This document shows positions 3,334 to 48,662 of a stretch of DNA of 60,005 bases, piece by piece. Each line of letters opens with the position of its first letter. Position 1 is the stretch's first letter. A model generated the notes under the pieces. The model was given only the letters and a program-made list of their open reading frames with translations. It was not told where the DNA came from and made no database searches. The translations under genes were made by a program, and so were the position numbers. Source of the DNA: Aplysia californica (taxonomy: Eukaryota); contig NW_004798067.1 in NCBI RefSeq assembly GCF_000002075.1, positions 92,087-152,091 of the forward strand, in the 5' to 3' direction.

Positions 3334-4144
3334 TTAAGAAAGTAGTCGTACTTTTTGATTGAGTCAAAAAGAAGCATACTGACATGATAAATGTCATTAA
3401 GTGCTGGGTAAAAATATAGGAAGTATACACACCCTATCCATCATAAATACCACATCACAGTACCATTTGCCTTTGAGATAGAGTGCATCAGTGCCTTGTT
3501 ATTTGGGAACATAAACCAATTAGGGGCCAACTAGAGTAGATTCAAGGAACTTCGCCACCTGGTCTCCCTGTTGTACTTTACAATGGAATAACCCACCTGA
3601 CCTATTTTCAGACCAGTTCAAGTGTCACTAAATTCCATAGTTGATCGGGCAATTAAGAGCTTCCAAAGCTGGGTTCCCACTCACTAAACCACAGTTTTTA
3701 AAGAAAGTGGGGAGGGTACCGGTAGTTGAGAGACTGGGCCTGAAAACCCAGGTGAACCAGGTAAGGATTCCTGATACAACCTAATTAAAAGGCGTCCAGA
3801 CCTAACCAAAAGGAACCCCCAGAATTGTGCCTCTACCAGGATCACAATATGACTACACGCCCAGTCATCAGCGGATTCTTTTTTTATCTTCTTCTTCTTC
3901 TTCTCCATCGCATCACATTTGAAGTCTGGTATCTGTTATAAATTGGGCCGTCCTGCTTAGTTCATCTGTCTGCCCATATAGCTTCTCTTGTAGTGTCAGT
4001 GGGGTTGGCCACGTTTCCTGTCTCAGGGCCCTGTGTGTCTTGCAGTGCTGAAGGATGTGTTCAACAGTTTGGTCTGCCTCTCCACACTAGCATTTTGGTG
4101 ATTGTACTAGTTTAAAACATCTGTACATATGTTGTCTCAGTCTT

Positions 4145-4935
4145 GTGTGTTGTGTTCTTAGTCGGAAGATAATCACTTGTTCAGGGTTCTTTGATGATTT
4201 AGAATCATTATTTCAGAAGCAGCAACTCAAAGACAAGCCTGCTCAGGTGTGGAACTGCAATGAGACTGGGCTGCAGTTCTCACCAAATGCTTTTATTAGG
4301 GTAGTGTCCGAAAAAGGGTCACAGAATGTACTAGCCAGATGCAGCCCCTCCAAGGAAAGCGCCTTAGAGCCGATCTCAGGTTACTCAAGGCCTACTGCGG
4401 CCCGAATTAAGGCGAGGGTGGATGACTGCCAGCTCGATTTTGGAAAATTCTCTCAACCGCGGAAAATCGTGGATCCACCAACGGAAAACTGTGATCCTTG
4501 GTGGATAGACGATGAAATCGGAGTGCAGTGGTTTTCATGTGTTTTTCTTCAACACTACAGGGACTCAAGACCCCAGCTGCTCATACTCGACTCTCACCAC
4601 AGTCACTAAGTGTTAGAGCTATTGGAAATTGCCCAAGAGGAGAACATACATATTCTGGCCCTGCCTCCTCACACCACCCACATCCTCCAGCCTCTTGACA
4701 AAGTCGTATAATTGAAACCATTCAAGACTGATACAGAAAGCATTGTACAGAGTTTCTTTCAACTTTTCCTAATCTGACCATCAACGAGGCGACATGGCCA
4801 AGAATTTTGAAGCAGATCTGGGACTCCACCTTGAGACCACCCCTGATAAAGACAGCATTCCAGGCCACCGGAATCGTGCCCTTGGACAGGAGACAGATCC
4901 CCCAATCTGTGTACATGCCCTCTGACACCATTAGA
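4145..4935 (+). pseudogene. Degenerate pogo/Tigger-type DDE transposase relic
   Basis: Motifs VWNCNETG (DETG), PQLLILDSHHSH, ILALPPHTTHILQPLDKVV and AFQATGIVPL, with an in-frame stop at 4607-4609, a frameshift and a non-homologous patch near 4363-4495. Confidence 0.85.
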
Positions 4936-6317: not shown

Positions 6318-9300
6318 TCAGACAGTTGGCGCTGTCGTTGGCCAGTTTCTGTACAACATGATAGTTGTGGCAATCAATCCAAACACTCCGTTGGTCGCAG
6401 GCGACAACTTTTGTGACCACAGAATACCAGGCGGCATCCAGGACACAGCGTTGACCAGGTCACAACACGAGTGTGCCAACAGCAGCAGGACGTCTCTGCG
6501 CTCGCTGGCCAGCTTCTTCAAGTTGTCCTTTATCTCCGCATTTTGGCTGGAACCTTGCCCAGAACTGAAGCAGAAGAAAGGAAACAAATGTCAGCAGGAA
6601 AGGGGAGAAAAACACAGAAACAAGAAGGAGCAATCAGTAGCCCTTTCCAACATGTAATGCACACTCTCTGACTTCAATTCATTCACAATATGGTAATCAG
6701 TTGAAAGCAGCATGTATAATATTGTTGAGAAAAAAGACTTTCAAAATGTCACTTTAAGATGTATGATACAATTGTCAATTTTGATTTGAAACAAGCAAGA
6801 AATATAAGCAAATCTTATAGTACTGACTTACAAATAAAACTCATCCATACAATACTGTAACACTCATAAGACTAACTGGGCTGCATGTAGCCACATTTCT
6901 AAATTACTTTTGACATCAGGGAAGTTTCATTACCTATTTTTCCTACTCCGAAGATGTATTTTATAAAATAAAACAATTTCTGGGTACCAGTCGTGAAGAG
7001 ACATGACGATAAAAATAATTTCTCCTCCTCATCCAAATCAAGATATCTAGTGAGAATCAGTGTCAAGCTTTAAAAGATCAACTTCCAATATTTTGCATCT
7101 TCCTAAGAATGTACAAATCAAAAATTTATTTACACAACAAACAGATCTAAGATCTAAGACAAAAACCGAATTTGATTTTTTTCAAACTTCAGATTTTTCA
7201 GCGTCTTATCCTTAAATCATTCGTATTTTTATTACCCAGTTCATAGGGAATAACCCCCCCCCCCCAAAAGCATCAGTTTTACACTAAACTCACCCATCTT
7301 TGTCAAGTTGTCTCTGCTTTTTTAGTTTCAAGGCTAACATTGCCAGACCTCGGAGTTTCAGCAGTCCTCTGAAAGAAACATAATTTGAATATATATATAT
7401 ATAAGAGTTTGAAAGCTTTACCCTCACAGTCCAATTTTAACTTCTCCCGTCAAAGCTATTTTTAACCACTTCAAAAAAAGATAAGACAAAATTTGAAGTG
7501 AGTGAAGCACTCATTTCTACAAAAAAAAAAGCGCCCAAAACAACTTGAATTTAGTGCAAAATTACCTTCTTCATGTTGTTGGTAGTCATTTGCACTGTTG
7601 GTTTTGATATAATTTTTCTGCACCTTCAAGTTGGAAAGTATTACCAGCGGATGAAACCGTCCACATTGCACATTTAGTGTGAGGATTGAATTGTTCTCAT
7701 CAAACTCAAGTGGTTAACACTTTGGCGTCGCATCTCACCGATATCTACCACCTAGTTTCTTTGGATTTTCCCCAAAATGCCTTTGCCTTTGATGGCACGA
7801 GTTTTTACTATATGAGCCTTGTCACAGCAAAGTGTTAAACAATCACCTCAACTTATATATACCATTCTTTGGTTCTAAGCTTAGAAGCTAAAGCTGCCAT
7901 TTTCTAGATAGGCAATAACAGCACACTATATCATGTTACATTATAAAAATGAATATATTATATATATATATTATATACAGTAAAATAAAAATCTCTATAA
8001 CAAAAACTTAATAGGAGCAGAGAATTCCTTCATATTAAGCAGATTTCCAGTTGAGGAAAGCTGCGATGCAAATAATGCTGAGGAGAAAAAAGAAACAGGG
8101 ATTCAAAATCCCTTTCTGGTAACAGGAATCTCGTACTTAAACAAATCCAACTGTATACAAATCATGTTTACTTGATAATCTCAAGTTAAACAAAGAGAAC
8201 TGTACACAAATCATGTTTACTTGATAATCTCATGTTAAACAAAGCCAACTTTATACAAATCATGCTTACTTGATAATCTCATGTTAAACATACCCAACTG
8301 TATACAAATCATGTTTACTTGATAATCTCATGTTAAACAAAGCCAACTTTATACAAATCATGCTTACTTGATAATCTCATGTTAAACACACCCAACTGTA
8401 TACAAATCATGCTTACTTGATGATCTCCACCAGCAATGAAACTGCCCAGATGAAGAGACCAACCAACAGCATTGGGGTTGGAAGCCCATCCAGAATTTTC
8501 TTCTGTCTCAACCAGGCAATATGCTCTGATGGGTAGAACGCCTGGTTCAGCAAAGAGCTTAACACCTCCAGAATCTGCATTATGCCTTTTTCCTTTTATA
8601 AATGGAGACAAAACATGTTTTCATCAGTTGGTTTCACCTAAAGAATTTAATGTAACTTATTCAAGCAAAAAAATATTTTTCAAATATATGTGAATAGGCG
8701 AAAATATAGTGAGATACATGTGCCAGCTTTGATCTCTACAGAAACTGTTATTATAATCTTTACTAAGAATTATTATACCCTGAACAACTAAAATGAATCA
8801 TAATTCAATGAAAACAAATCTGAACCTTGAACAAAATAGCCAAATTTTAAGCTTTGAGCCCCCTTTCAACGCTGTGACGTTATTTAAGAGGTTGCTGATC
8901 TTGAAGCAGAAAGTTTTTCACAACATTATTTCAGTATACAGTATAACACGGACAGGTCAAACACAAAATACTTGAAATCATGCGTCCGTCAAACTGTACC
9001 CGCGGTTCTGTTTAATTTTTTCTTCTTTATCTCTGTAAGTTACCCCTCGAACTACTGATCCCTCGAACTATCGAGGTCGGTCCTGATGAATTTGAGCTCT
9101 CCGCGTTATACTGTCAGTGGATATTTTTAAGACAAGCTTTTGACCTGAAAAACTTATGAAACCTCCTGGGAAATGGTATTTGCACTATGACTGTGGACTC
9201 ATGCCCACACATATGTTTGGATACAGCGGTAACCAAACTATCCTAGGCAGGAAATATGGTAAGTTATTGATGGTTATTTCACAACTTTCTATCCTGTGGC

Positions 9301-9650
9301 AAAGTAAACTTGTCCGCATATATATATATATATATATATATAAATTTAAAAATAGATGGGCCAAGCAAAAATATCTTCAGCTCCCAGGTATACAAGAGAA
9401 AAGTACGTACCTTGAACCCAAAACCTTTCGATAGATTAAACAAGAACATAGGCAAGTCATCAAATAGTCTGAGAATGACACGGCATGCTCCCATCTCCGC
9501 AGAGAGAGTCCTCCACTTGACTTGAGCAGGAGTCTTGCCATCTCCACCCATATACATTCCTGCGTAGGTGATCCATCGTATAAAGCGATCCCGTCCTCTG
9601 TAGGTCTCCAGGACATTGACAAGACTGACTAAACTTTTAACAAGAGCCAT
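6318..9650 (-). CDS. PEX11G: Peroxisomal membrane protein 11 gamma-like (PEX11G/PEX11C), 245 aa; join of 9650-9411, 8592-8417, 7368-7294, 6564-6318
   Basis: Four GT-AG exons (240+176+75+247 = 738 nt, intron phases 0,2,2) give one open frame. Recognisable PEX11-gamma motifs: LETYRGRDRFIR, CRVILRLFDDL, NQAFYPSEHIAW, DLVNAVSWMPPGILW. An acceptor at 9668-9669, 17 nt upstream of the ATG, implies a non-coding first exon further upstream. Confidence 0.92.
7466..7834. mobile_element. Two abutting TTAA-flanked MITEs (7466-7713 and 7718-7834)
   Basis: TTAA|CCACTT...AAGTGG|TTAA|CACTTTG...CAAAGTG|TTAA. Confidence 0.55.
8128..8427. repeat. 49-bp minisatellite, ~6 copies, overlapping the PEX11G exon donor
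   Basis: Unit aaacaaagccaactttatacaaatcatgcttacttgataatctcatgtt; donor GT recurs at 8416, 8367, 8318, 8269, 8220, 8171. Confidence 0.92.
8939..9113. mobile_element. Small Tigger-like MITE
   Basis: TIRs cagtataacacgga / tccgcgttatactg, with TA on the left flank. Confidence 0.6.
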
Positions 9651-9916
9651 CCTCTTGTTTCCAGGAACTGTAGAATGAATAGAAGGTAATTATAACTCTT
9701 TACCAAACTTTTATCAAGTCATTAAACGAGGCAAAGAAAATAAAATCAAAGAAATATAATTTGACTAGGGCAAAGAATGCAGATGGGATTAGATTAGCAG
9801 AAGAGGATGGACATGATTTTTGGGTAAACAGTTTGCCAACCCCAGTCCAAAGAACAGAATTTTAGGGTTTATCTAATGGAAAAAGAAACAGGACGATGTG
9901 TTCACAGGTCATGTGA

Positions 9917-12506: not shown

Positions 12507-15500
12507 ATGGAGCCTGATGTTATTCCTCTGTCCGAGCAATCTGCCGAGAATAAAGTGATGCCATTGGAATCTAATACAAATGATGAAGAGGACTTCGATT
12601 TAGGAGCAAACGTTGTCCAGCTGCGTGTTACAGATGGCATTAGAGAACTTCAAACAGTTATACGCGACAAGTAAGTGTAATGAAATAGTGGGGCTCGTTA
12701 TGTCACTGATTCACTGATGACTGATGGTGATTTCAGCAGTATGTTACGTGTTAGACCTTGTGTTTTTTATTATTAATATTGCAGCCAGGAACAAGACCTC
12801 CATGTTTTCCCCTTCTGTACTTTGGGGACGTTCTGTTGTGGAATTAATTAATTGAATTTTGTGATTGCCCATGCCAGATGATGCCATGCCATATGTCTAG
12901 AACTCTACTCTACTTTAGAGATATATTATATTATTATAGATCTATAGAAGAGAATCTAGATTCTAGGGATAGAATCTAATCTAGACTAGATTTTCTAGAT
13001 CTAGAGAAGATCAGAAGATCTCTGTACTCTAACTCTAAACCAATCCCTCCGGTTACAAGTCAATTTAGTAGGTGGTAGATAGAGTCTAGAATCTAGGTCC
13101 AATTATGGCCCCGGCATGGTTCATCGGATGATGACAATCTGACTTTGTCGACTGAAAGACCAAATCAACAGAGAACGTTCGGAGAAATAGTGCCGATCGT
13201 TATTTTTATTGACAATTGAATGTAGAATAAAGATATCTAGATCTAGATCTATATCTAGATTGAAAGTGGCTATTCTCACCCGCCCGGAAGTTCTCGCAAG
13301 ATCAACTCCTCCCCTCTTCTCTCTCTCTCCGTCTCTTTCTGAATACTGTCTATCGGTGTGGACGATCAAATTGACCAAAACAAAGTTTAAAAATGATGTT
13401 AGAACACAAAAGTAAATAAATTTGGTTGTCTACAAAGATGCTACGGCTATTTAACTTTTCGAATCGAGCCGAACTACGCGGGTCACCATTTTGTTTTGCC
13501 CGGAAATTCTTGCGGTACTCCTCTCTCTCTTTCTCTCTCTCTCTCCACTGCCCACAGACAAAATTGTACGCTTTTAGTAGGCTACAATTGTAATGGAACG
13601 TTTGTTCATGGCACAGAATTCTACAATTTTTCTGTTATCACAGTGTAAAATTCTGTGGTTTAGGGTGAACGCGCACCGGGTGAGAATAGCCACAAGACTC
13701 GCCTGCACTATTCTCACTCCGGGTGAGAATAGAGGTGGCCATCTAGATTATAGATCTAGTGGAATTATAATTATTGTTCAATTGTAATTTTTTTGTTCAT
13801 CTTTAAAAAGGCTTAGCCTGTAGCCTTGCAGGCCTTGCCTGTAGTTACTAAAGCTAAACCACTATCTCTATGACTATGAATATGAGATACTGTACAGAAG
13901 AAGTAGGAGGCTAGAATCTAGATTCTAGTTTTTAGAGTTCCCAAAAACCCTCGTCCTGTAATTTTTATTTTTTCCCCATGACATGACCCATATGTGAAGC
14001 AAAAAGGCAGAGGAGTAGGATGACCCTGTGACAAATGACCTCTTCAAGTGTGTAGTGTAGTACCCGCTGTAAACCCGGCCGCTGTTTTATATAAAGGAGT
14101 CCATCCCTCATTTTTAAGGCCTTTTGCCCTCTCCGAAAAATGTAGTTAAATTGGTTTTGGGATTTTTATTACTATTACGAAGTGATTATTTCTCTGAACG
14201 CTGGGGAAAATATACTTGACCTCTATTTCTCCGAACGATTTTCGTATTTTTGGTTATTTGCGAGAGTTCGGCCCTGCCATTCTGCAAGGACTGGTAAGAA
14301 ACATTTTTTGCATCAAATTCAAACATAGAGCTGCTTATATAAACGGAGTAAGGAAGGGGGAGATATAGAGAATCAGAAAGACAGAGAGAGAGAGAGCAAA
14401 ACAAAGATATAGAGAAGTGTACAGTGGACGGCTTAAGTTGACAGGAGCAAGGAAAAGGGGGATGAAGAAATAAAGACATAGAATGAGAGAAAAACAGGGA
14501 AAGAAAGACAGACAGAGAGAAAGAGAGAGAGGGAATGGGAGGGAAAGAGAGAGAAAGAGAGGGAGTGGGAGGGAGAGAGACAGAGACGAGAGAGAAAACG
14601 ACAGTGAGTGAGAAAGAGAGAAAATAGGAGAGAGGAGACAGATAGGCAGACAGATCTATTGGAAACAGCCGGGTAGTAGTGCTGGGCGGTACCGGCGAAA
14701 CCCAGTGTCGGTACTTTCTCGGCACTGCCGAGAACCGCGGTACCGGTACTGGGAATGACACCAGGAGGTGACGTCACAGACTGCATCTCGCGTCGCCACG
14801 ATCAGCGCCGCCCGCATCCCCTACCAAACACACACACACACATAAGAATTGGAGAGACGTACTATGATGCAAAACACCTTTGAAGTTTGCTGCCGCGCGG
14901 GATTAAACTTAGCATGCAGAATTTTTTAAATGATTATTGCTGCTAAAAATTGATTTCATTTTCGGAATCAGCGTATCAAAATATGCAAAGTGGCTCGCGT
15001 AAAACCTGATTTGATGCCGTATTTAAATTTTATATTAAAGTAAGTACACTTTTTTTAAATTGTCAATTTTGAATCTGAAGTCATGTATCAAGGTCACCTG
15101 CTGCGTTGTGCATCTGATGTCACAGCTGCCAGGCCTAGGCCTACACACTGCACACTTCCCGTGGCCCAGTAAAAAACCGTTGGTGTCTGCTCCTTCCCAG
15201 AGCCGCTACTAACTGTTGGTGTCTTCTCCTTCCCAGAGGCGGTACTGGAGGTCAGGTGTTGGTACTGACCCCTCCTTCGGTAGAACTGGGAATTCCGGTA
15301 CTGGGTACCGGTACCTGCCCACCCCTACCAGATAGAGAAACACAGAGAAGGAACCAGCAGAGACAGAGAAAGAAATAAAAGCTGCCAGAGACAAGCAGGC
15401 ATAATAAGCCCCCTTGAGTATCGCTTGACCCACCTATAAATAAGCTTTTATATTTATGGCGCTCGACTGGTTCTTGTAGGAATTATTCCCACTTCCCGCC

Positions 15501-18063: not shown

Positions 18064-20812
18064 AATATAGATGGCCACCTGTGTCAATGGGCTTGTATGT
18101 GTATGTGCACAAGGTGTGTATAGTTATAGTAAAACAAATGTGCTGTGTATGTGTGTAAATGTCTGAAATGTGGCTTACAGTTCATGTCCAATTATAACAT
18201 ATGGTTTCATTCAATTAAAACTTAGGTGTTTTATGATAAACTTTGCTTGATCCTTGAAAAACACCTGCATGCTTTCAGGGGTTGGTTTTTTTTGGTGCTT
18301 TATTAGTCTATGATGAAAGTATAATGTACTCATTGTACACTTGTTTCTATCTATTCCTAATGGCAATATAAATAAAACTGCTTGTGTGCCACAGGGGAAG
18401 CCATGGAGCAAGGGCTGCGCGACTGTTGCCGGTCAATACGGATAGGGAAAATATTGATCCAGAGTGACGAGGATACTCACGATGCCAAAGTGGTCTACGC
18501 AAATCTCCCAAAGGACATTCACCAACGCAAAGTTTTGCTGATGTATCCCATCATGTGTAAGTTTCTGATCCAGCTGCTGATCTCAAGGCTGCTGGATGGG
18601 AAGATAGATCTTCAACATGACTGTTTTGTTATTATGATGATGGGTGGTCGGCGGGTGCTCTGGTATGGTTTGCTCCTTCTTTCCTATCAAAATATCTGTC
18701 ATCCTTATCTCCCCTCTTTCTTTTTTGTGTATGTTACTCTCTTGTAACACATAATCTATTCTTCAGCGCTTATATGACCTTATTGTGTTGCAAGTGCGGT
18801 AAAGCTCTTACTAAAACTTTTTTAATGGTCTCTTCAACAGGGTTATTTTATTATTATAATGATTATGGTCTCTTCAACACTGCTATTTTATTGTTATGAT
18901 GATGATCATCTCTTCAACATGGCTATTTTATTGTTATGATGGTCTGTTCTATTGGGGCTCTGGTGCCTCTGGTGTAACAGTGAGGCTTGTCGCCATTTTG
19001 TAGAAAAAAATGTAAGTCAGATTTCCAAATGGGGAAGTCTATTTTATCTAGTGTCTTCATCTTTTTGTTCAGATACTCATTGTAAGCAGCTGTGTCACTA
19101 AATTAATGTTTTTCAAGGTGGGCGAGATATTGAGAGAAAGCCTTGTGCAGGCCGGATGACTGTTTTCTTGAGTACAGTACACTGATGTGTTCAATGGAAT
19201 ATTGGTCTTCATAAAGCTGGGCAAGAGTGTGATGAGTTTGGAAGTCTATAAAATCACGTTTAATTTTCACGGTAGATTAGATGAAAGGATTCAATTATTT
19301 TGTTGACCAAGTCCTAAGCACGCTACAATCTTATCTTCCATGTTGGTTGGGATTTTTTTCCTTGCTTGGTAGCATGGCGATGGGCTAGACGAACTGAGCT
19401 TGTTGGCTGTAGTTTGTTGACTCCTGTCCTACTGGCAGGGTACATTCTGTCAACTCCTGTCTTGCAGGAAGGAAAAAACAGGCTGCCTCCTAAATGCTGT
19501 AAATTATATCGTGTGGGGGCATTAAACATTTACTGTTATCGTTATTTTATTGTCACCGATAAATAGCGTTGCTTTTTTAGTTCCTGATACTCTGAAGGGA
19601 TCTAGCTTACTGTCTGTCAATTTGGTCTTCAACTGCATTTCCCTAGGTTCTATGGATGACAGTATGAGCTGAGATTTTAACCTACGGTGTATATTCGCCG
19701 TTTTTTTTATCTGTTGAAAGTGTCATTGTGTTTACAAAATGATCCCTGGAGCACTGAGTTGAAGAAATCTCGTTGTACTTTCCTCAGGCACAGGCAACAC
19801 AGTGGTGAAAGCTGTCAGGATCCTGGCCATGCACAACGTCAAGCAGGAGAACATCATCTTGTTAAATCTCTTCTGCACCCCTCATGGTAATTATACTTGT
19901 GCTTGTTTCTAAAAGAAAACTTGTGTCCTTGTTTTTTTCTTTGTGTCTCCTGCGTGTCCATTAACACAGAGACATTAGTAAACTGTCCTGGGTAACTAGC
20001 TCAGCTGAAAATCAGTGCTGACAGAAGGAATGCATTATACCCCCTGGCAATGAAAAAGTTAAGGAAAGTAGATAAGGTGTGGGATTTTGTACAAATTGTC
20101 TTGAAATGTTCAGTTGTGTGGCCCAAATTGATGGTTGCTCTGTCAATAGTTGGATGTTTACAGGGCAGAGTTGCTGTCAGCTGTGGGTCTGACCATGTGA
20201 CTGGGGACAGATGTGTGCTCTGTGCGCTGTGTGGGTGGAAAGTGTTACGCCTACCTCAAATTTAATTCCACAGAGCTTTGTATTTAATTTGATGGGACAT
20301 AAGTTGTTGCTACTTATTTGTACCCATGCATTGTCCCTGCACAGAACAGTCCTTATTGCATCATCGGGGAGTGCCTGTAAAGAAGTAAATGACAAAAAGA
20401 GAAGCAGCTGTCATGAATCGTTTTAAATACCTTACTGTGATGTCAAATGTTAAGATCTTAAATTTGTGACCGTGTTTCTTTCACTTTGTTTATTTGTGAA
20501 TTAACATGTATATCTTTGCTTCATAGTTTGAAGCTCACCCATCCAAAGCCACAATGTTAGGATTAGTGTTTTTTACACAATTCTGTCTATGTCATTCTTA
20601 TGATATTACTGCTAGCTGTTTTTTTAACTGATCTTATGCTTGAAATGATGATTCCTGTGACTTTACTGATGCTGACTGATGCACTTTGTCTGTTTTATAT
20701 TTCAGGGGCCAAAAAAATCATCGCCGAGTTCCCTGGCTTGAGAATTTTGACTTCAGAAATTCATCCTATTTCACCGAGTCATTTCGGACAGAAATATTTT
20801 GGCACGGACTAA
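12507..20812 (+). CDS. UPRT: Uracil phosphoribosyltransferase homolog, 235 aa; join of 12507-12670, 16153-16195, 16846-16915, 17754-17816, 18395-18556, 19788-19886, 20706-20812
   Basis: Seven GT-AG exons (708 nt) in a continuous frame: [78 protein letters not shown], and C-terminal HFGQKYFGTD as in animal UPRT. Confidence 0.96.
13262..13742. mobile_element. Dispersed non-autonomous DNA element with tattctcacc/ggtgagaata inverted motifs
   Basis: Nearly identical to 47436-47930. Confidence 0.8.
14060..15745. mobile_element. Probable non-autonomous DNA transposon with subterminal inverted repeats and an internal GA-rich tract
   Basis: ctctatttctccgaacg (~14221) is inverted relative to cattcggagaaatagag (~15724); repeated ggtaccggtac motifs; purine tract ~14350-14650. 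Boundaries approximate. Confidence 0.45.
17562..17693 (+). repeat. ~125-bp intronic duplication, copy 1 (UPRT intron 3)
   Basis: Near-identical to 18168-18292. Confidence 0.85.
18168..18292 (+). repeat. ~125-bp intronic duplication, copy 2 (UPRT intron 4)
   Basis: Near-identical to 17562-17693. Confidence 0.85.
18641..18816 (+). mobile_element. ~175-bp dispersed retroposon 3' end (SINE/LINE tail)
   Basis: tgggtggt...tggtttgct...cttactaaaac; homologous copies in the opposite orientation at 31851-32018, 32025-32196 and 39552-39735, plus a fragment near 53512-53555. Confidence 0.65.
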
Positions 20813-38200: not shown

Positions 38201-39551
38201 CTGAAGATTTGACCATGCAATCCATAACAATAACACTTCTCATGCACAGAAAGTAATCTAGGAAACTACAAGTCTGGGAAAAATTGCCCCAAAAACGAAA
38301 TGAAAGATTAAAAAAAAAAAGAATGTTACAACAGCCGTATCAGTCAAAAGGAAGACATTGCTTTAGTACCTGTATGGTTCTAGTCTTCAACAACAGGTTT
38401 TCCCTGGGGATGACAAACGGACAGAAAAAAAACCCTCACTTCAGTTTCACTTTAAGACAGAGACAAACGGAGAGAAAAAAACCCTCACTTTAGTTTCACT
38501 TTAAGACAGAACAAAAACTGAAGAAACAGTAAGCACGAATTCCGAGAGTAGTCTGAAGTGGAAGGACCCTACCCCTATCCCTCTGTGTTCTGAGGCAGGT
38601 ACTTGAGGTACATTCATCACATGTCATATGTCTCCAAACCAAACTTTCAAGTGGTAAGTCTACTCATTTTTTAAAAATGTTCCCCCAGAAAAGATAAACA
38701 TCAATAAAAAAACTGCACCTGTTTTCCTGGCTTAAACTGTGTAAATATCTTTACTTTGTATCTATCAGGTACAGAACAAATTATTCCTTATGTATATAGT
38801 AGAATATTTCAGTATTTTACTAAGAAGGCCAACCTGCAACCATGGATAAATATTGACACGCATTAAAAAGGAACACGACTTACCTTTCGACATCTCCCCC
38901 AAAAAAAAGTTTTAAAATTAATTTATTTTAAAAACTGTTGCACTGCATACATAGAAACGTAGTAACACTCACAAATACTTTTTCAAAACCTGTTATTTCA
39001 GCATCAATATTTGGGGTACAGACAGCCATACAGAATATCAGTGTGGTTAACCAATGTGCTCGCTTTGCAAATAATCTGCTTTGGATTCAGCCCAAGAAGC
39101 CGAATCGCTCAGAAAAGTTTACAAGTACAAGTATAGGAATAGTGATCTAATACAAATATTATTTCAAATTTTCATAAAATTTCCTCGTGTCATTTCAATT
39201 CAATAATGTCATCTGGAGGCAAAGATAACTTTTTTAACATAAAAAGTTAGTAATAACATCATGCTGTCCTGGAAAAGAAATTTAAAAAAAAAAAAAAAAT
39301 TTTTTCAATCCGTGAAACAAAAAACAAAAAAGCCCCGGTCAAAAGTGTATCTTAACCTCAGTTGCAATCAACAAACAAGGCAGACCAGTGGTGAATGCCA
39401 GAGCTGTACAAATGCATGAGTTAGATGTGCTAGGGAGGCTCTCATTGTCCGTGTGTTTGTTGGGGGGAGGGGGGGGGGGGGGGGGGGTGAGAGGGGGGTG
39501 AGGGGGTTTATCGTTTGGGAGATTCAGTGTGCACCTCACAAGCCAGTGCAA

Positions 39552-40851: not shown

Positions 40852-43800
40852 CTACTCATCCCCTCCTCTACGGCGGCGAGCTCTCCTTGCTGCCCGGTCC
40901 TCGCTGTCGTCAGTCGTGCTGGCTGCCGCAGCCTCTCGCTCCTCTCTCCGCCTCCTCCTCCTCTCCTCTCTGTCGTCCGTCTCCGTGCTTTCCTTCGCGG
41001 CCTCTCTCTCCCTCTCCTCCCGGCGTCTGCGACGTCTCGCCTCTCTCTCGTCTTCCTCTGGCTCTTCTGCTGCGGGAGCGGCCGCGGGTTTCTCTTCTTC
41101 TTCTTCCTTCTTTTCTTCGCTTTTCTTCTTGGGTGTCGCGTCATCATCAAACAGAGGGGTCTCCTCCTCGTCCTGATTCCTCCTTCGAAATCTCGTAAAA
41201 CTCGATGCTGCATCTTCTTCTTCAGCCTTTGGTTTGTCTTCCTCCTTTTCTTCTTTTGGTTTTTCTTCCTCCTTTTCTTCTTTTGGTTTTTCTTCCTCTT
41301 TTTCTTCTTTTGGTTTTTCTTCCTCTTTTTCTTCTTTTGGTTTCTCTTCCTCTTTTGGTGTCTCTTCTTCTTTTGGTTTCTCTTCCTCTTTTGGTGCCTC
41401 TTTCTCTTTTGGTTTTTCTTCCTCCTCCTCTTCTTTTGGTTTCTCTTCCTCTTTTGGTGTCTCTTCTTCTTTTGGTTTCTCTTCCTCTTTTGGTTTTTCT
41501 TCTTCTTTCTCCTCTTTGGGCTCCTCTTTAGCCTCATCTTTCACCTCCGCTTTCTTGTCCTCCTCTGACTCCTTTGGTTCGTCATCTTTTGCTTCCTCCT
41601 TGCTCTCCCCAAGGTCCAATTCTTCTTCATCGTCATCATAGGGCTTCTTGAAACGGCTTTTGAAAGCAGAAGCAGGGTCATCTTTTTTGGGCTCATCTTT
41701 CTCCTCTTCTTTCTTACTATCAGCAACCTTTTCCTCATCCTTCGACGTCTCCTCTTCATTTTCCTTATCAGCATCAGCCGCTTCTTTCTTATCCTCTTTC
41801 TCCTCACCTTTGTCCTCTGCCTCCTTTTCATCACCTTCCTTCTTGTCATCTTTTTCTTCAAACTCACTTAAATCCAAACCTTCTTCCTCCTCATCATATG
41901 CTTTCTTAAATCGATTCTTAAATGCACCAGCTAGATCATCCTTCTTTTCCTCTTTCACTTCTTTCTTTTCCTCTTTCTCTTCTTTCTTTTCTTCTTTCTC
42001 TTCTGTCTTTTCCTCCTCTTTCTCTTCCTCCTTGTCTTCTTTTTTCTCCTCTTCTTTTTCTTCAAAAGCACTTAAATCAAGACCCTCTTCTTCATCATCG
42101 TACGCTTTCTTAAAACGATTTTTGAATGCTGAAGCAGGATCATCTTTCTTTTCCTCTTCCTTCTTTTCTTCCTTCTCTTCTTCTTTCTTTTCCTCTTCTT
42201 TTTCTTCAAATGCACTTAAATCAAGACCCTCTTCTTCATCATCATCATAAGCTTTCTTAAAACGATTTTTGAATGCTGCAGCAGGATCATCTTTCTTTTC
42301 CTCTTTTTCTTCCTCTTTCTTTTCTTCTTCCTTCTTTTCCTCAATCTCACTTAAATCAAAGCCCTCTTCCTCATCATCATCATAAGCTTTCTTGAAACGG
42401 TTCTTAAACGCGGCAGCAGGATCCTCTTTCTTTTCCTCCTCTTTTTCCTCTTCTTTCTTCTCCTCTTCTTTCTCCTCAAAAGCGCTCAGATCAAGCCCCT
42501 CTTCCTCGTCATCATCATAGGCTTTCTTGAACCTGTTTTTAAAAGCAGCAGCCGGGTCATCCTTTTTCCCCTCTTCTTTTTCCTCGTCCTTCTTTTTCTC
42601 TTCCTCCTTATCCTTCTTTTTCTCTTTCTCCTCACCTTCTCCTTTACCCTCTTCCTCTTCTTCTGCAGCCTTGTCTGGCTCATCCTTTCCTTCCTCCTTT
42701 TCAGGCTGAATAACAAAATAAACAAATATGATGGAGAACAGGGTCACTTTAAAATATTGAATACAACGCGTTAACGACACAGACCAAAAGGTGAGGGGAA
42801 TCCTAAATTTTAAAAAGTCATGCGTCTACCAGAATGACACAAAACAATATTTAGAGGTTGGAATGGAAAGTCTTTAACTAGAATTTTACAGTCTAATCAC
42901 AGCAAAGCTAGACCATAAACCACTCTACTTCAAAAACAAAAAAACGGCAGTAAACCTAAAGGGTTACTGCCTTAGGAAGATTACACCTCAGTGGTACTCT
43001 CCAGGACCATATATGTGAAGTTTGGGGGGGGGGGAAAAATGTGTTGAGAACATCAACAACCTCCATTGCTTCACCAAACATGACGCACTGGGAGAATAAA
43101 CCAAACATATGTGACGTTCTGGGGGTGATAAAACAAATATATATAATAAATGTATTTGGGGTGATAAAACAAACATATGATGTACTTGGGGTGGCAAAAG
43201 CAAACATATTAACCACAATCAATTCTATTACTAGACCAGACAACATACACAATAGGACAAAGAAACCACAGACAGTTATACAGCAACGAGGTGGGTTCAA
43301 AATATTACACCTATCTCTACCAACACATTATTAACGAGAGGCTATAAATTTTCTGCATCTTTTCAATATGAGGAAAAGATATACACAGGAGGTGCAGTTA
43401 AAAACTTCCATGGGAAGAACACAAAAAACACACAGAGAGGTGTAACAGTTGAAACAGTGAGAACCCTCAAAAGGTGATGTGCCATGTTGAAAAAGAAAAA
43501 CTTATACCCTAACTGTACCATTAAGTTATCTCCTTCGATATGTGGACGTCATCATGGCTGACGACTTAGAAAAACAAGTGTCCTTAAAGAGTTTGAAAGC
43601 AAACCGGTATTATAATCTGAGTATGAAACAGATTGGAAAGAACCGACTACAAGTTTTAAAAAAAAACATGTTTACAACTTGGGTGACTGATTTCTTTTAT
43701 AGACCACAGAAAGGAATGTACTGTGAGGAATTAGTATGGTAATAGACATATATTTTAGAAAGTAACAAGTAATCACTGAGTACTGTGTGTTGTAGTGATC

Positions 43801-46800
43801 GTGTAAGAAGACAACAAGTTCACACCATGCCACAGCAAACCAAACTACCTGATCTTCCTTCTCCTTGCCTTCTTCCTCTTCCTCCTTAAACAACAAAACA
43901 GTATAACAAAGTTCAACATGGAAATATGTCACTTGAAAAGAATAAATAGGAAATAAAACAAAGTGGTCAGACAGCAAATGCTGTATAAGTACCGGAATAA
44001 CAATCACAAAAATATACACGTTTTGTCGTAAAAATGTTTGACAGGGTGGAAGCACTATAAAAGAATACAGTAGAGTCTGCTTAAAGCAAAGACGGTTAAT
44101 CCGAAAACAGTCGTAAACCAAAAGAAAAGAAAATCCTGGGGTTTTCTTTTCTGTCTAAGCAACCTCTCTAAACCATAAACCCGTCGAAAACAAAGAAAAT
44201 CAGGTGATCTCGCAGGATTTGATTCCAGAGGACTCCAGTGTATTTATTCTATGTCTAGGACATAATATAACACTGTGTGTAGACGTATATAGTCAAAATT
44301 TGAGAACAAAAAAAGTCATACAGAATTTCAAGTTGAAAGCAAAATGACAAGATAAACATCAATACATACCCCTGTTATCACTACTTGAGCCTTTGAGGTT
44401 TTGTCTGGATTTTCAAGCTTCAGGAATTCGTAAAGTTGGTCCCATTCAAGTGACTCTTGAAACTTCTCATAATCCTGCAGAGTTGAAATATGATGTGCAA
44501 TTATTTCTATTTTAAACAGAACCGTGTCCAAATAATATCGTGAAGTCAATTATTAGAAAGACAAAAAACTGAACAGTCTATATATATAGGAAACCATAGC
44601 AGCAAAAACAAAAAAACAAAACTGAAGTCTGAAAGATTACATAATGCCATTATGGAGTCACTCTCAGTAGTGGAATTTAAAAATTGATCACCCACCCACA
44701 CAAGAACTACATTTCACTGTTTTAAAACTTTGAAAATCAGAGAACAAAAATGCCGGTATAAATTAAGTTAGAAAAGCATAAAAACTAATGGTTTGAAAAT
44801 TTGAGCTGTTGCAACATATCTAAGCTGACCTTTAAAGAAAACCCTTAGATAATACAAAAAAACAATGAGAATGTTTTATATCGTAAACTTAAATATTAAA
44901 AATGTTAAACGAGAAATCTCATCAGAGAGACGACATAAACCAAGGTAGGACAAATACATCACTACTAAAAGAAATCCTCCTACCCCACAGTAATCGTCTC
45001 CATTGAAGATCTGAGGGGGCTGGGCCTTCTGATTGGCTTTCTTGGGCTTGCTGTGAGCGTGCATGAACTTCAATGCCTCATCATTGCGAGGGTCAAGGAC
45101 GTCAACGATTTCATGATCTATTTTTAATGAGCTCAAGATATCTTTCACATGCTGCTGTTTCTTTCGAATCTGAGGAAAAAGCAAAATTAATCCTTCACAA
45201 TTCACCTCTCAAGCTTTACAGAATATGCTGGAGTCAGTCAACTGTCTGCTACAATGAATGATAATGACAAAAAGCAAGAATTCCATCAGTATGATTCCTG
45301 CAGGACAGTAGAGGGAGGAAACCCTGGTTGCTGTTACAATACACAACAAGAAGCTAATCGAACTAAAAAGAACAATGTTCAAAGTCCAAGACACATACCT
45401 GTACAAATGGCCACTTCCAACTTGCATTTAATTTATTCAGTACTAGCTGGGTACCCGTTCGATGAACGGACTTTAAAAAAATGATCGTCAAGTCATTGTG
45501 GAATCAGTACCCACTACTTGTGAACGGAAGCCTCACTTGTTTACAATGGTATCTTAGAAGGACTTTCCCAAGATTAGATCTAAACCAAACAAATGAAAAA
45601 CTGAAAACTAAACTACAGTGACTTCAGACTCCTTTAATATAACTGTTCACCCTTTGAATGATTCTTAACCACCGTTAATTTTTTCAAATTCGAAAGTTAA
45701 GCGGTTTAGAAGTATTAGGCCACCAAAGTGATGAACTTTCACATTATAAAAATATATAACAGCATTGCCCAAAATGAAACCTGTCCAACTTGGCCACAGC
45801 CACAATATTTCCAATTACTCCAAAAACCTGTCCAAGATGGCCACGCAAATCTTTCATCATCTTGACTCGTAAAATATTATATATTCAGACCCTGGCATAG
45901 TGTAAGGAACATTATGAACCCATTCACCTGTCATTATTGTCAGACCCCCTTAGAGCCAGCAGAGAGTGGGTGCTATAGAAGTAAGTGATCTTTGATATCA
46001 TTATGATTATAATGAACAACTCTTTGATCAACACCACACGGGGCAGAGCACAAATGTCCAAACCACCACCTCTGTGAAACCACTTGTTGAGCTTTTGTGT
46101 GTGTTTGTGAACAACTTTCAGGAGAAGGTAAATTTAAGGAATGAGAATTGCTGAGATTGTAAATAAAAGATAACACAAATTAATACAAAAATATAACAAA
46201 CACGGCAAGTTCTAGATCTAGATCGAGTCAACAGTCACTGGCGAGGGAACCCCAAGAGTCTTGGGGGAAACCCCGGAAGACTACAAAAATAGATGGTGGA
46301 AATACGTCATCTATATTTGGGCTAATCACAGAGGGGTGCTAGGTGCTCGCTGTAGCTTCAGGTAGAATAAAATGATTTCTTTACGCCGAGTTTGGACTAA
46401 GAAAGTCTCAGACTTGGTCGGTCATCATAAAGTACAGTAAGGTCATAGAGGTGGGAAGGCGGGGCAGTATAGGTTACTTTTGTACATTTGCAGCACTACA
46501 TGAATCTGTCGAAGTTGCCTCAACCTACCCTGATTATAGATACTCTTGCCATGTATGCAAAGCGAGAGGAATTCCGTAACTAGTATGATATGAAACAGTA
46601 AAAGGTTAGGGTTACAAGTTCAGTGAGGTTAGGGTTTGGGAAGGATTTTCATTTACGCACAATGACCCCAGCAAACCTGAGAATATTCAATAACCCACCC
46701 AGCCAGGCCATCAAACTTGCTAGAAACACGAAGCTCTTTCTCCCCTTGATGCCCTAGAGGTACAAGAGGATGGATAAAGTAAGTAAGACTCCAGCAAACA

Positions 46801-48662
46801 CAATAGAAGAGACCTCCTAGAGCTAACCCTAACCCCGACCCAAACCCTACCCTTTTAATCTAACCCTCGCTATACTATTCTACTCTATAGTCTACTCTAG
46901 TAGTGGTCGCTCTTTACTCTTTCGAAGTGACTATCTTCACCTGGGGTGAGAATAAAAATATGATCGACCTCTCACCCCTGGTGAGATTTGGCAGCTTTGG
47001 CTATGCTCAACCGGTGAGAAACAATACCTGTTTTTCTAATTTCGGAATACTGTCTATCGGTGAGGATGATCAAATTGACAAAAGCAAAGAAAAAAATGAT
47101 GTTATAGCACAAAAGTAAGCTAATTTTACCACAATTTAATGTTTTGCTGTTGTTAGGTTTGATATCTTAGCTCACCGCGATTCAAACGTATAGATCTAGA
47201 TCTAGAAGTAGGTCAGGCTCAAATAAGGGGGGTGGGAACTACCGAAAAAGCACCCAAAGATGCTCTAAGTAGGCTATTTCACTTTTCGAATCGAGCCGAA
47301 CTACGGGGGTCGCCATTTTGTTTTGCACAGAAGTTCTCGCAAGATCTACTCCTCCCCTCTCTGTCTCTTACTGAATACTGTCTATCGGTGTGGACGATCA
47401 AATTGAACAAAACAAAGTTTAAAAATGATGTTAAAGAAAGTGGCTATTCTCACCCGCCCGGAAGTTCTCGCAAGATCAACTCCTCCCCTCTTCTCTCTCT
47501 CTCTGTCTCTTTCTGAATACTGTCTATCGGTGTTGACAATGAAATTGACCAAAACAAAGTTAAAAAATGATGTTAAAACACAAAAGTAAATAAATTTGGT
47601 TGTCTACAAAGATGCTACGGCTATTTAACTTTTCGAATCGAGCCGAACTACGCGGGTCGCCATTTTGTTTTGCCCGGAAATTCTCGCGCTACTCCTCTCT
47701 CTCTTTCTCTCTCTCTCCACTGCCCACAGACAAAATTGTACGCTTTTAGTAGGCTACAATTGTAATGGAACGTTTGTTCACGGCACAGAATTCTACAATT
47801 TTTCTCTTATCACAGTGTAGAATTCTGTAGTTTAGGGTGAACGCAAAATTTGGAGAACGTGCACCGGGTGAGAATAGCCACAAGACTCGCCTGCACTATT
47901 CTCACTCCGGGTGAGAATAGAGGTGGCCATGTTAAAACACAAAAGTAAATAAATTTGGTCATATCTACAAAGATGCTACGGCTATTTAACATTTCGAATC
48001 GAGCTGAACTACGCGGGTCGCCATTTTGTTTTACCCGAAGTTCTCGCGCTCCGCCTCTCTCTCTCTCTCTACTTGCCCACAGACAAAATTGCACGCTTTT
48101 AGGCTAACAGTAGTAACACAAGAGCGCTGGAAGAACGTTTGTTTACGGCACAGAATTCTACAATTGTTATCACAGCGTAGAATTATGTGGTTAAGAGTGA
48201 ACACGACACTGGTTGGCCTAGGCCTAGGCTATAATGGTGAACGCACACCTGGTGAGAATAGCCAAAAGGCTCGCCTGCGCTATTCTCACCCGGGAGGTGG
48301 CCTTACTCTACAGAATTCCTTCGAAAAGCCAAAGCCAAGGCACAAGGGGGTTGCATGTTCAGGGTTCTAAAGGTTTATTGGTTACCCTTTTCTTTACCAT
48401 TATGTTTGTTGTTCAGTGTCAGTCACCAAGCAGTTAAGTCAGCAGCAATGCGTTGTTGAGATTTGATTAGGCTTCAAGACTAATCAAGAGCTTGTTGGGC
48501 TTGAGACCGAGTTAGATGAGACCGAGCCGAGAGTGAGAGTGAGACAGACAAGACAGTGCCAGAGAGCAACCGTTTGTTTTTGTAATGGGACAAGGCGAGG
48601 AGCAAAAGAATACATACCTCACTGCTGACAGTTGCATTACTTAAGTAGACCTTGAGACTCAT
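40852..48662 (-). CDS. SH3BGR: SH3BGR-family (SH3 domain-binding glutamic acid-rich, thioredoxin-like fold) protein with long Glu/Lys-rich repetitive C-terminal extension, 741 aa; join of 48662-48618, 45169-44984, 44474-44370, 43884-43849, 42705-40852
   Basis: Exons 1-3 encode MSLKVYLSNATVSSE / IRKKQQHVKDIL...QPPQIFNGDDYCG / DYEKFQESLEWDQLYEFLKL, the SH3BGR domain with the family's phase-0 exon layout. A 36-nt exon (EEEEEGKEKEDQ) and a 1854-nt last exon follow, both phase 0 with polypyrimidine-AG acceptors. Joining the long exon is inferred from phase and position. Confidence 0.85.
43526..43564 (-). CDS. Candidate alternative stop-containing exon of the SH3BGR gene (SSAMMTSTYRRR*)
   Basis: Minus-strand acceptor cttgtttttctaAG (AG at 43566-43565) in phase 0, then 12 codons, TAA, and a donor-like ATG|GTACAG 7 nt later. 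Confidence 0.35.
   Translation of the reverse strand, partial: SSAMMTSTYRRR
45443..45758 (-). mobile_element. Non-autonomous Helitron-like element
   Basis: Minus-strand 3' end reads hairpin ccgttcatcgaacgg + 9 nt + CTAG followed by T, a canonical Helitron 3' terminus. The AT-rich 5' end is approximate. Confidence 0.6.
46903..48302. mobile_element. Array of ~3 tandem/nested copies of the tattctcacc DNA element in SH3BGR intron 1
   Basis: Blocks gaatactgtctatcggtg, ttcgaatcgagc(c/t)gaactacg and ggtgagaatagcca each recur 2-3 times; 47436-47930 matches 13262-13742. Confidence 0.8.

Follow-up and report, generated by a model that had tools for sequence, protein, structure and literature searches.

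The closest described relatives of the gene analysed here are the human proteins SH3BGRL, SH3BGRL2 and SH3BGRL3 (TPECs). According to the excerpted text of a 2026 study, these proteins do not bind G-actin and nucleate weakly, block growth at an actin filament's pointed end at nanomolar concentrations, need micromolar concentrations to slow subunit loss, and cooperate with tropomodulin (PMC12827327). The same excerpts describe the family head as nucleating without a WH2 motif, place SH3BGRL C-termini next to tropomodulin, and report the family in spectrin-actin complexes; pointed-end capping is established there for the three human proteins, the muscle SH3BGR having been left out (PMC12827327). 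The long-tailed vertebrate SH3BGR is confined to striated muscle, where it lies at the sarcomere, in the excerpted part of another report (PMC8541172), and the excerpts of two bivalve papers name an SH3BGR-like protein only as an entry of a table or a list of genes (PMC6641155, PMC11622493). A further point of comparison is yeast Aip5, a pointed-end binder whose thioredoxin fold lies within a larger protein and, in Aip5, at its C-terminus, according to the excerpted 2026 study (PMC12827327).

The locus described here produces one protein of the human type and one that departs from it. The 131-aa short isoform is such a protein, with a homologous domain, no CXXC and the PPQIF motif, whereas the long isoform carries a further 617 aa, in which a motif recurs six to seven times, in a family given as 10–20 kDa in the excerpted study (PMC12827327), and some actin-contact residues also differ. 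Vertebrate muscle SH3BGR likewise joins an SH3BGR domain to a long Glu-rich tail, but there the tail is plain and belongs to a gene of its own; here both forms come from one gene by splicing, with a tail several times the length. To our knowledge, Aip5 has no repeat homology to the motif. Tropomodulin and leiomodin, pointed-end binders that are aided by short helical arms within disordered sequence, offer the long form a functional analogy only, a sequence match not having been found in the searches made.

The window (the whole stretch of DNA analysed, 60,005 nucleotides of Aplysia californica, contig NW_004798067.1) carries this gene on its minus strand, and its membership of the SH3BGR family is confirmed (Table 1). 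The domain scores 49 bits against a Pfam PF04908 cut-off of 21 (E 6e-13) and contains a single Cys and no CXXC. A profile of the orthologous domain recovered seven SH3BGRL chains from the PDB (E 1e-19 to 5e-17), the top one being 8iah_Z (E 1.6e-19), so that the closest solved chain is an SH3BGRL protein in the spectrin-actin entry 8IAH. Among the zone 1 actin-contact residues of that chain (8–17, 39, 40 and 46), Ile16 and a basic residue at 17 are kept, positions 8–15 are alike in kind only, and Arg46 faces Leu. Exons 1–4 have canonical splice ends and are in phase. The repeat exon, 1854 nt and open throughout, lies inside a 657-codon frame ending at 40852, with an AG acceptor at 42705, and the tail that it encodes is 71% charged, with a net charge of about −113. 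Within intron 1, several copies of a repeated element occupy window positions 47000–48300, and a similar copy lies near 13100–13650.

Table 1. Features of the SH3BGR-family gene and its repeat exon (positions in the window).
Feature	Position	Strand	Evidence
Exon 1: start codon and SH3BGR domain N-terminus	48618..48662	-	ATG, GT donor; loose end of contig record 3, run X12, equals exon 1 sequence
Exon 2: SH3BGR/thioredoxin-fold core	44984..45169	-	Pfam PF04908 E 6e-13; AG/GT; spliced contig
Exon 3: SH3BGR domain end	44370..44474	-	Pfam positions 79–98, E 0.014; RNA joints on both sides
Exon 4: 12-aa acidic linker; one donor serving both isoforms	43849..43884	-	RNA joints 43883–44369 and 42705–43849; kept in P0001 and P0004
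Repeat exon: alternative terminal exon, 617 aa	40852..42705	-	Open frame; 9+5+3 junction reads
Motif copy 1	42484..42558	-	Sequence; RNA reads
Motif copy 2	42349..42423	-	Sequence
Motif copy 3	42214..42288	-	Sequence
Motif copy 4	42070..42141	-	Sequence
Motif copy 5	41866..41937	-	Sequence
Motif copy 6	41608..41679	-	Sequence
Young Pro-Lys-Glu-rich minisatellite spacer	41228..41528	-	Periods 18–99 nt, matches up to 95%
Degenerate copy 7	41149..41214	-	1/499 scored shuffles does as well or better
C-terminal acidic-then-Arg-run units, two clear and a weaker third	40855..41058	-	Sequence; no match in Pfam and none of meaning in the PDB
Downstream alternative exon: seven codons plus a stop	38370..38403	-	Exact X12 contig loose-end match; AG/GT

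Transcripts from this locus were examined over positions 42480–45400, an interval containing copy 1 alone of the motif copies, in three polyA raw-read runs of one study and in a fourth run, X12, which is a contig set. The joint from exon 4 to the repeat exon (43849 to 42705) was crossed by 17 reads with GT-AG ends, divided 9, 5 and 3 among the polyA runs, and by none in the contig set. The exon 3–4 joint was seen in 1, 2 and 2 reads and in one contig, and the exon 2–3 joint in three reads of one run and in a contig that also holds the exon 3–4 joint; because the reads are 101 nt long, a single read never spans both the SH3BGR domain and the repeats. Copy 1 is covered by RNA reads. Two differences from the assembly are fixed in all three polyA runs (42569 and 42609); both precede copy 1, in its spacer, whereas copy 1 itself has none listed. 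Loose polyT ends at 42577 suggest that priming was internal, and read depth therefore does not gauge how abundant each isoform is.

A contig of run X12 leaves exon 4 in another direction, running into an exact match to 38403–38380 (reached by chance in 0 of 100 shuffles), with AG before it and GT after it. Since this contig joins exon 4 to the downstream exon, the gene yields two proteins, a short form of 131 aa and a long form of 741 aa. The repeat exon is thus optional and hence not the sole last exon of the gene, and the short isoform is newly recognised. X12 shows the short junction without the long one and the three raw-read runs show the reverse; this opposite use hints at regulated splicing, with the proviso that contigs drop variants. 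X12 contigs also lie at low depth over parts of the intron after exon 4 (43060–43877), and may derive from pre-mRNA, DNA or a retained-intron form.

The initial annotation had described six copies of a motif of about 28 aa in the last exon. All six are found, on the minus strand and in one open exon (42705–40852); their placement in a terminal exon stands, while each measures 24–25 aa when counted from its initial Asp through its final Ser or Gly, and the short form ends elsewhere. The copies are separated by Glu/Lys spacers of 20, 20, 24, 44 and 62 aa, and the seven copies follow one another at 45, 45, 49, 68, 86 and 155 aa. An exact 10-mer recurs five times in the array, and not one of 1000 shuffles produced it even twice. 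The five codings that had been quoted for FKKAY are correct, copy 6 reading FKKPY instead. Phe, Arg and Ala positions are invariant across the six copies and two organisms, and an acidic run and a hydrophobic-Asp-hydrophobic end are present in all copies. The seventh, degenerate copy, which had been placed near 41150–41215, is the top match downstream of copy 6 for a profile built without it, and appears to be genuine, a weak but real member of the array. AlphaFold2 predicts one helix over residues 6–19 of the unit (pLDDT about 68), FKK falling within it; the hydrophobic moment of the full copies is 0.32–0.42.

Towards the C-terminus, the acidic-then-Arg-run units form a second repeated motif of the long isoform. 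Their layout recalls, as we see it, the N-terminus of caldesmon. Identity with a disputed molluscan caldesmon-like protein was considered for these units, and nothing was found in its support; caldesmon is absent from catch muscle in the excerpted text of a review (PMC12040844).

Comparison of the six copies over 23 codons (15 pairs, which are not independent of one another) gave pS 0.80 and pN 0.08. When the minimum number of changes was counted for each codon column, over the 18 codons outside the acidic run, 20 were synonymous and 14 were replacements, where 21% synonymous changes would be expected (p 1e-6), and the excess persists under a generous expectation of 40% (p 0.02). The motif copies are thus under purifying selection, a conclusion supported by these codon counts. 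This upholds half of an earlier proposal, that the copies reflect selection rather than recent slippage. The other half fares less well, as copies 1–4 make up a 135-nt tandem array with 81% identity and copies 3 and 4 are set apart by merely two synonymous differences, which together indicate that duplication is partly recent and still going on.

Conservation beyond this genome comes from P0001, a protein of another organism that is 89% identical over exon 2 and carries the SH3BGR domain, the exon-4 linker and two in-frame motif copies, 41 and 40 aa being its copy spacings, in a single chain. Its odd tail would also fit a third copy read in another frame (25 of 26 residues, against 12 in the best of 300 shuffles). 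The helix is nearly unchanged between the two organisms, in which the spacers drift, and the P0001 model places a helix at both motif copies, with low confidence. The agreement between the RNA reads and this orthologue leads us to reject mis-assembly or artefact. The initial annotation had proposed that the motif array is fused to an SH3BGR domain, and would have given way had no transcript joined the two, had orthologues lacked or not conserved the motif, or had it matched a described repeat family; the transcript joint exists, the orthologue keeps the motif in one chain with the domain, and no described repeat is matched in the searches made. The suggestion that the Tyr-acidic segment is a kinase site is weakened, since neither of the two in-frame copies of P0001 keeps the Tyr, which is replaced by Phe or missing. 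In a further relative, P0004, the linker is joined to a long exon as it is here, and the sequence stops before any motif copy; P0004 lacks the final residues of exon 3, ahead of the linker, which suggests an alternative donor in its organism.

The motif is documented in these two organisms and occurs in one of the 15 SH3BGR proteins retrieved (P0001); the vertebrate SH3BGR proteins P0012–P0015 are among those without it. When the genome was searched with a single copy, all six matches were this locus and the motif was found nowhere else; the two off-locus matches of another search (E 0.04 and 2.1) contain stops. The second SH3BGR gene of the genome (G000:C960:44663-44833) yielded no motif in the surrounding 40 kb, gaps included; after that gene comes a long stretch of degenerate repeats whose frames are broken, which is likely satellite DNA. 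A profile search of 1.84 billion representative sequences gave no matches at E 0.001, in a design in which relatives clustered under short SH3BGR forms stay hidden; P0001 itself was missed because it is not a representative, and would have scored 7e-19. Longer relatives of P0001 were absent from 7987 scored candidates, which is a weak test. In metagenome scans, 0 of 591 pattern matches were confirmed, and a degenerate motif pattern hit two contigs, neither of which scored with the motif profile. Three long SH3BGR proteins (P0007, P0008 and P0009; 295–317 aa, about 40% identical in the domain) have acidic tails that end in a common Asn-Cys-x-x-Phe-Trp motif of their own, unrelated to the repeat described here. 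Long tails with short conserved motifs may therefore be a recurring theme of the SH3BGR family.

Comparison with known families places the motif in none of them, as had been claimed. Pfam gave no match for any of the seven copies up to E 10; the PDB returned only AcrIIA4, a glucosidase, a cysteine protease and myosin light chain (E 0.25–3), which we take as chance; and the ESM Atlas held no usable match for the array, P0001 finding SH3BGR clusters only. Neither motif nor long isoform was described in the literature covered, a body from which subscription journals are largely missing. The initial annotation had seen in the unit a likeness to WH2, beta-thymosin and acidic actin modules, with which it has in common a short amphipathic helix, basic residues and tandem arrangement, and, for the WASP/WAVE C+acidic region, an acidic run. 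This likeness did not hold up. The locus is absent from the seven WH2 (PF02205) matches in the genome, and 0 of 7 copies match WH2 in Pfam; against the genome's own WH2, 99 of 300 shuffles score at least as high as the copies (hhalign 0.09%), and the LKK that follows the WH2 helix was not found in them. The locus is equally absent from 22 beta-thymosin (PF01290) matches, with 51 of 300 shuffles scoring at least as high against the genome's own thymosin (hhalign 0.18%), which itself, as a positive control, finds WH2 at E 0.001. That thymosin family includes a multi-repeat gene with at least seven repeat-bearing exons (G000:C30:702724-718088), and the genome also holds four divergent actin genes whose whole 382-aa frame lies in one exon, one of them 81% identical to conventional actins (L014–L017, the last being that one).

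The C helix of this genome's WASP is no closer, 410 of 2000 shuffles scoring at least as high as the motif helix (hhalign 0.3%), and the likeness of the motif's acidic part to the WASP C+acidic region is compositional. A Trp in the acidic run defines the WASP/WAVE C+acidic region; it is present in this genome's WASP, whereas the 617-aa tail has no Trp at all. Such no-match results are soft, since the genome's own WASP C helix misses N-WASP in the PDB at E 10. For the tropomyosin-binding site of tropomodulin and for troponin I (PF03250, PF00992), there was no Pfam match and no PDB match, in a PDB search that misses such short motifs; the motif is absent within 40 kb around the genome's tropomodulin and troponin I genes, an interval in which the relevant exons, including the tropomodulin N-terminal exon, were not located. 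The repeat is real, expressed, under selection and so far undescribed, and it is carried by an alternative isoform in a known family of actin cappers.

What might such a tail do? In our judgement it is probably a docking array of some kind, a string of putative fold-on-binding motifs, as suggested by the short conserved helix with its invariant Phe, Arg and Ala inside a tail so densely charged. The multivalent docking scaffold proposed in the initial annotation fits the data in this sense, its partner being putative. Our tentative choice, held with somewhat less than even confidence, is that the long form is a pointed-end capper whose acidic-tail helices putatively grip actin or tropomyosin and so raise avidity. 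The SH3BGR head would likely cap the pointed end, and the six helix-plus-acidic motifs of the predicted disordered tail would grip repeated sites on the same filament, each forming, once bound, a short helix along which Phe, Phe and Tyr, four residues apart, make up an aromatic stripe. Spacings of 40–49 aa would let neighbouring copies reach successive filament subunits, and the extra avidity would make a weak cap tight and anchored wherever cells splice in the repeat exon, with parallels in the Glu-rich tail of vertebrate muscle SH3BGR and the extra arms of tropomodulin. Actin or tropomyosin would be the most likely partner because the head is likely to sit at the filament end and the spacing could reach successive subunits. 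Against a grip on the filament, none of the tests run linked the motif to a known family of actin or tropomyosin binders, the later spacings (68, 86 and 155 aa) break the regular period, and the strongly acidic tail argues against broad contact with acidic actin; against pointed-end capping by this protein, the actin-contact residues appear only partly kept, Leu standing where 8iah_Z has Arg46. We consider it unlikely that the unit is a new filament-binding repeat by which splicing makes a multivalent cap-and-clamp, or else a tandem nucleator, out of a weak thioredoxin-fold capper, setting thin-filament stability or length in the muscle or neurons of this lineage, convergent with tropomodulin and leiomodin.

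The evidence of selection and conservation would serve equally well if the copies docked a partner other than the filament, perhaps as a scaffold tying capped pointed ends to spectrin, tropomodulin or another membrane-skeleton or adhesion protein, to a basic motor surface, or to an adaptor reading acidic-hydrophobic motifs. A hydrophobic-Asp-hydrophobic and acidic layout, kept here in all copies, is typical of adaptor-binding linear motifs, and the net negative charge suits a basic partner. The position of SH3BGRL C-termini by tropomodulin and the presence of the family in spectrin-actin complexes, as excerpted from the 2026 study (PMC12827327), point the same way. Yet no specific motif consensus is matched, and for six or seven copies on one chain a repeating lattice is the simpler partner than one adaptor, so that we regard non-filament docking as possible, though on the doubtful side. 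Still less probable, in our view distinctly so, is that the unit is a divergent WH2-like or C+acidic-like module that binds monomeric actin or Arp2/3, in which case the long form would nucleate from tandem monomers or modulate Arp2/3: the unit's helix, its conserved Arg, a hydrophobic residue and the acidic run do parallel the C+acidic region of this genome's WASP, the searches are insensitive to short motifs, and the head is a weak nucleator without WH2 in the excerpted study (PMC12827327), but the chance-level scores, the missing Trp and the absence of the locus from the WH2 and thymosin matches all tell against it. The tail might instead be a physical element such as a polyelectrolyte spacer, cation buffer or brush, the motif being kept for local structure, self-association or phosphorylation and not for a partner protein, including fold-back on the SH3BGR head. 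Its high charge, the plain, motif-free acidic tails of other long SH3BGR proteins and the continuing duplication of part of the array would all suit this idea, which we nonetheless think rather improbable, as a spacer has no need of Phe, Arg and Ala positions that stay invariant in six copies and in both organisms, and the low-confidence P0001 model gives no sign of the motif packing on the head (pTM 0.23, a weak indication).

Whichever reading holds, the tail carries a discrete, selected, repeated peptide that is open to synthesis and direct test, and the two products of one gene, with the tail and without it, form a natural pair for comparison. Should the peptide bind actin or tropomyosin, it would constitute a new filament-binding motif; should it bind another partner, that partner would tell us to what these animals tether their pointed ends.

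Elsewhere in the window lie a weak DDE_1 transposase remnant at 4091–4606 on the plus strand (E 0.004, below the cut-off), the exons of a PEX11 gene at 6321–9689 on the minus strand (Pfam PF05648), and, at 18376–18744 on the plus strand, an exon with a uracil phosphoribosyltransferase domain (PF14681), possibly from a uridine-cytidine kinase-like gene.
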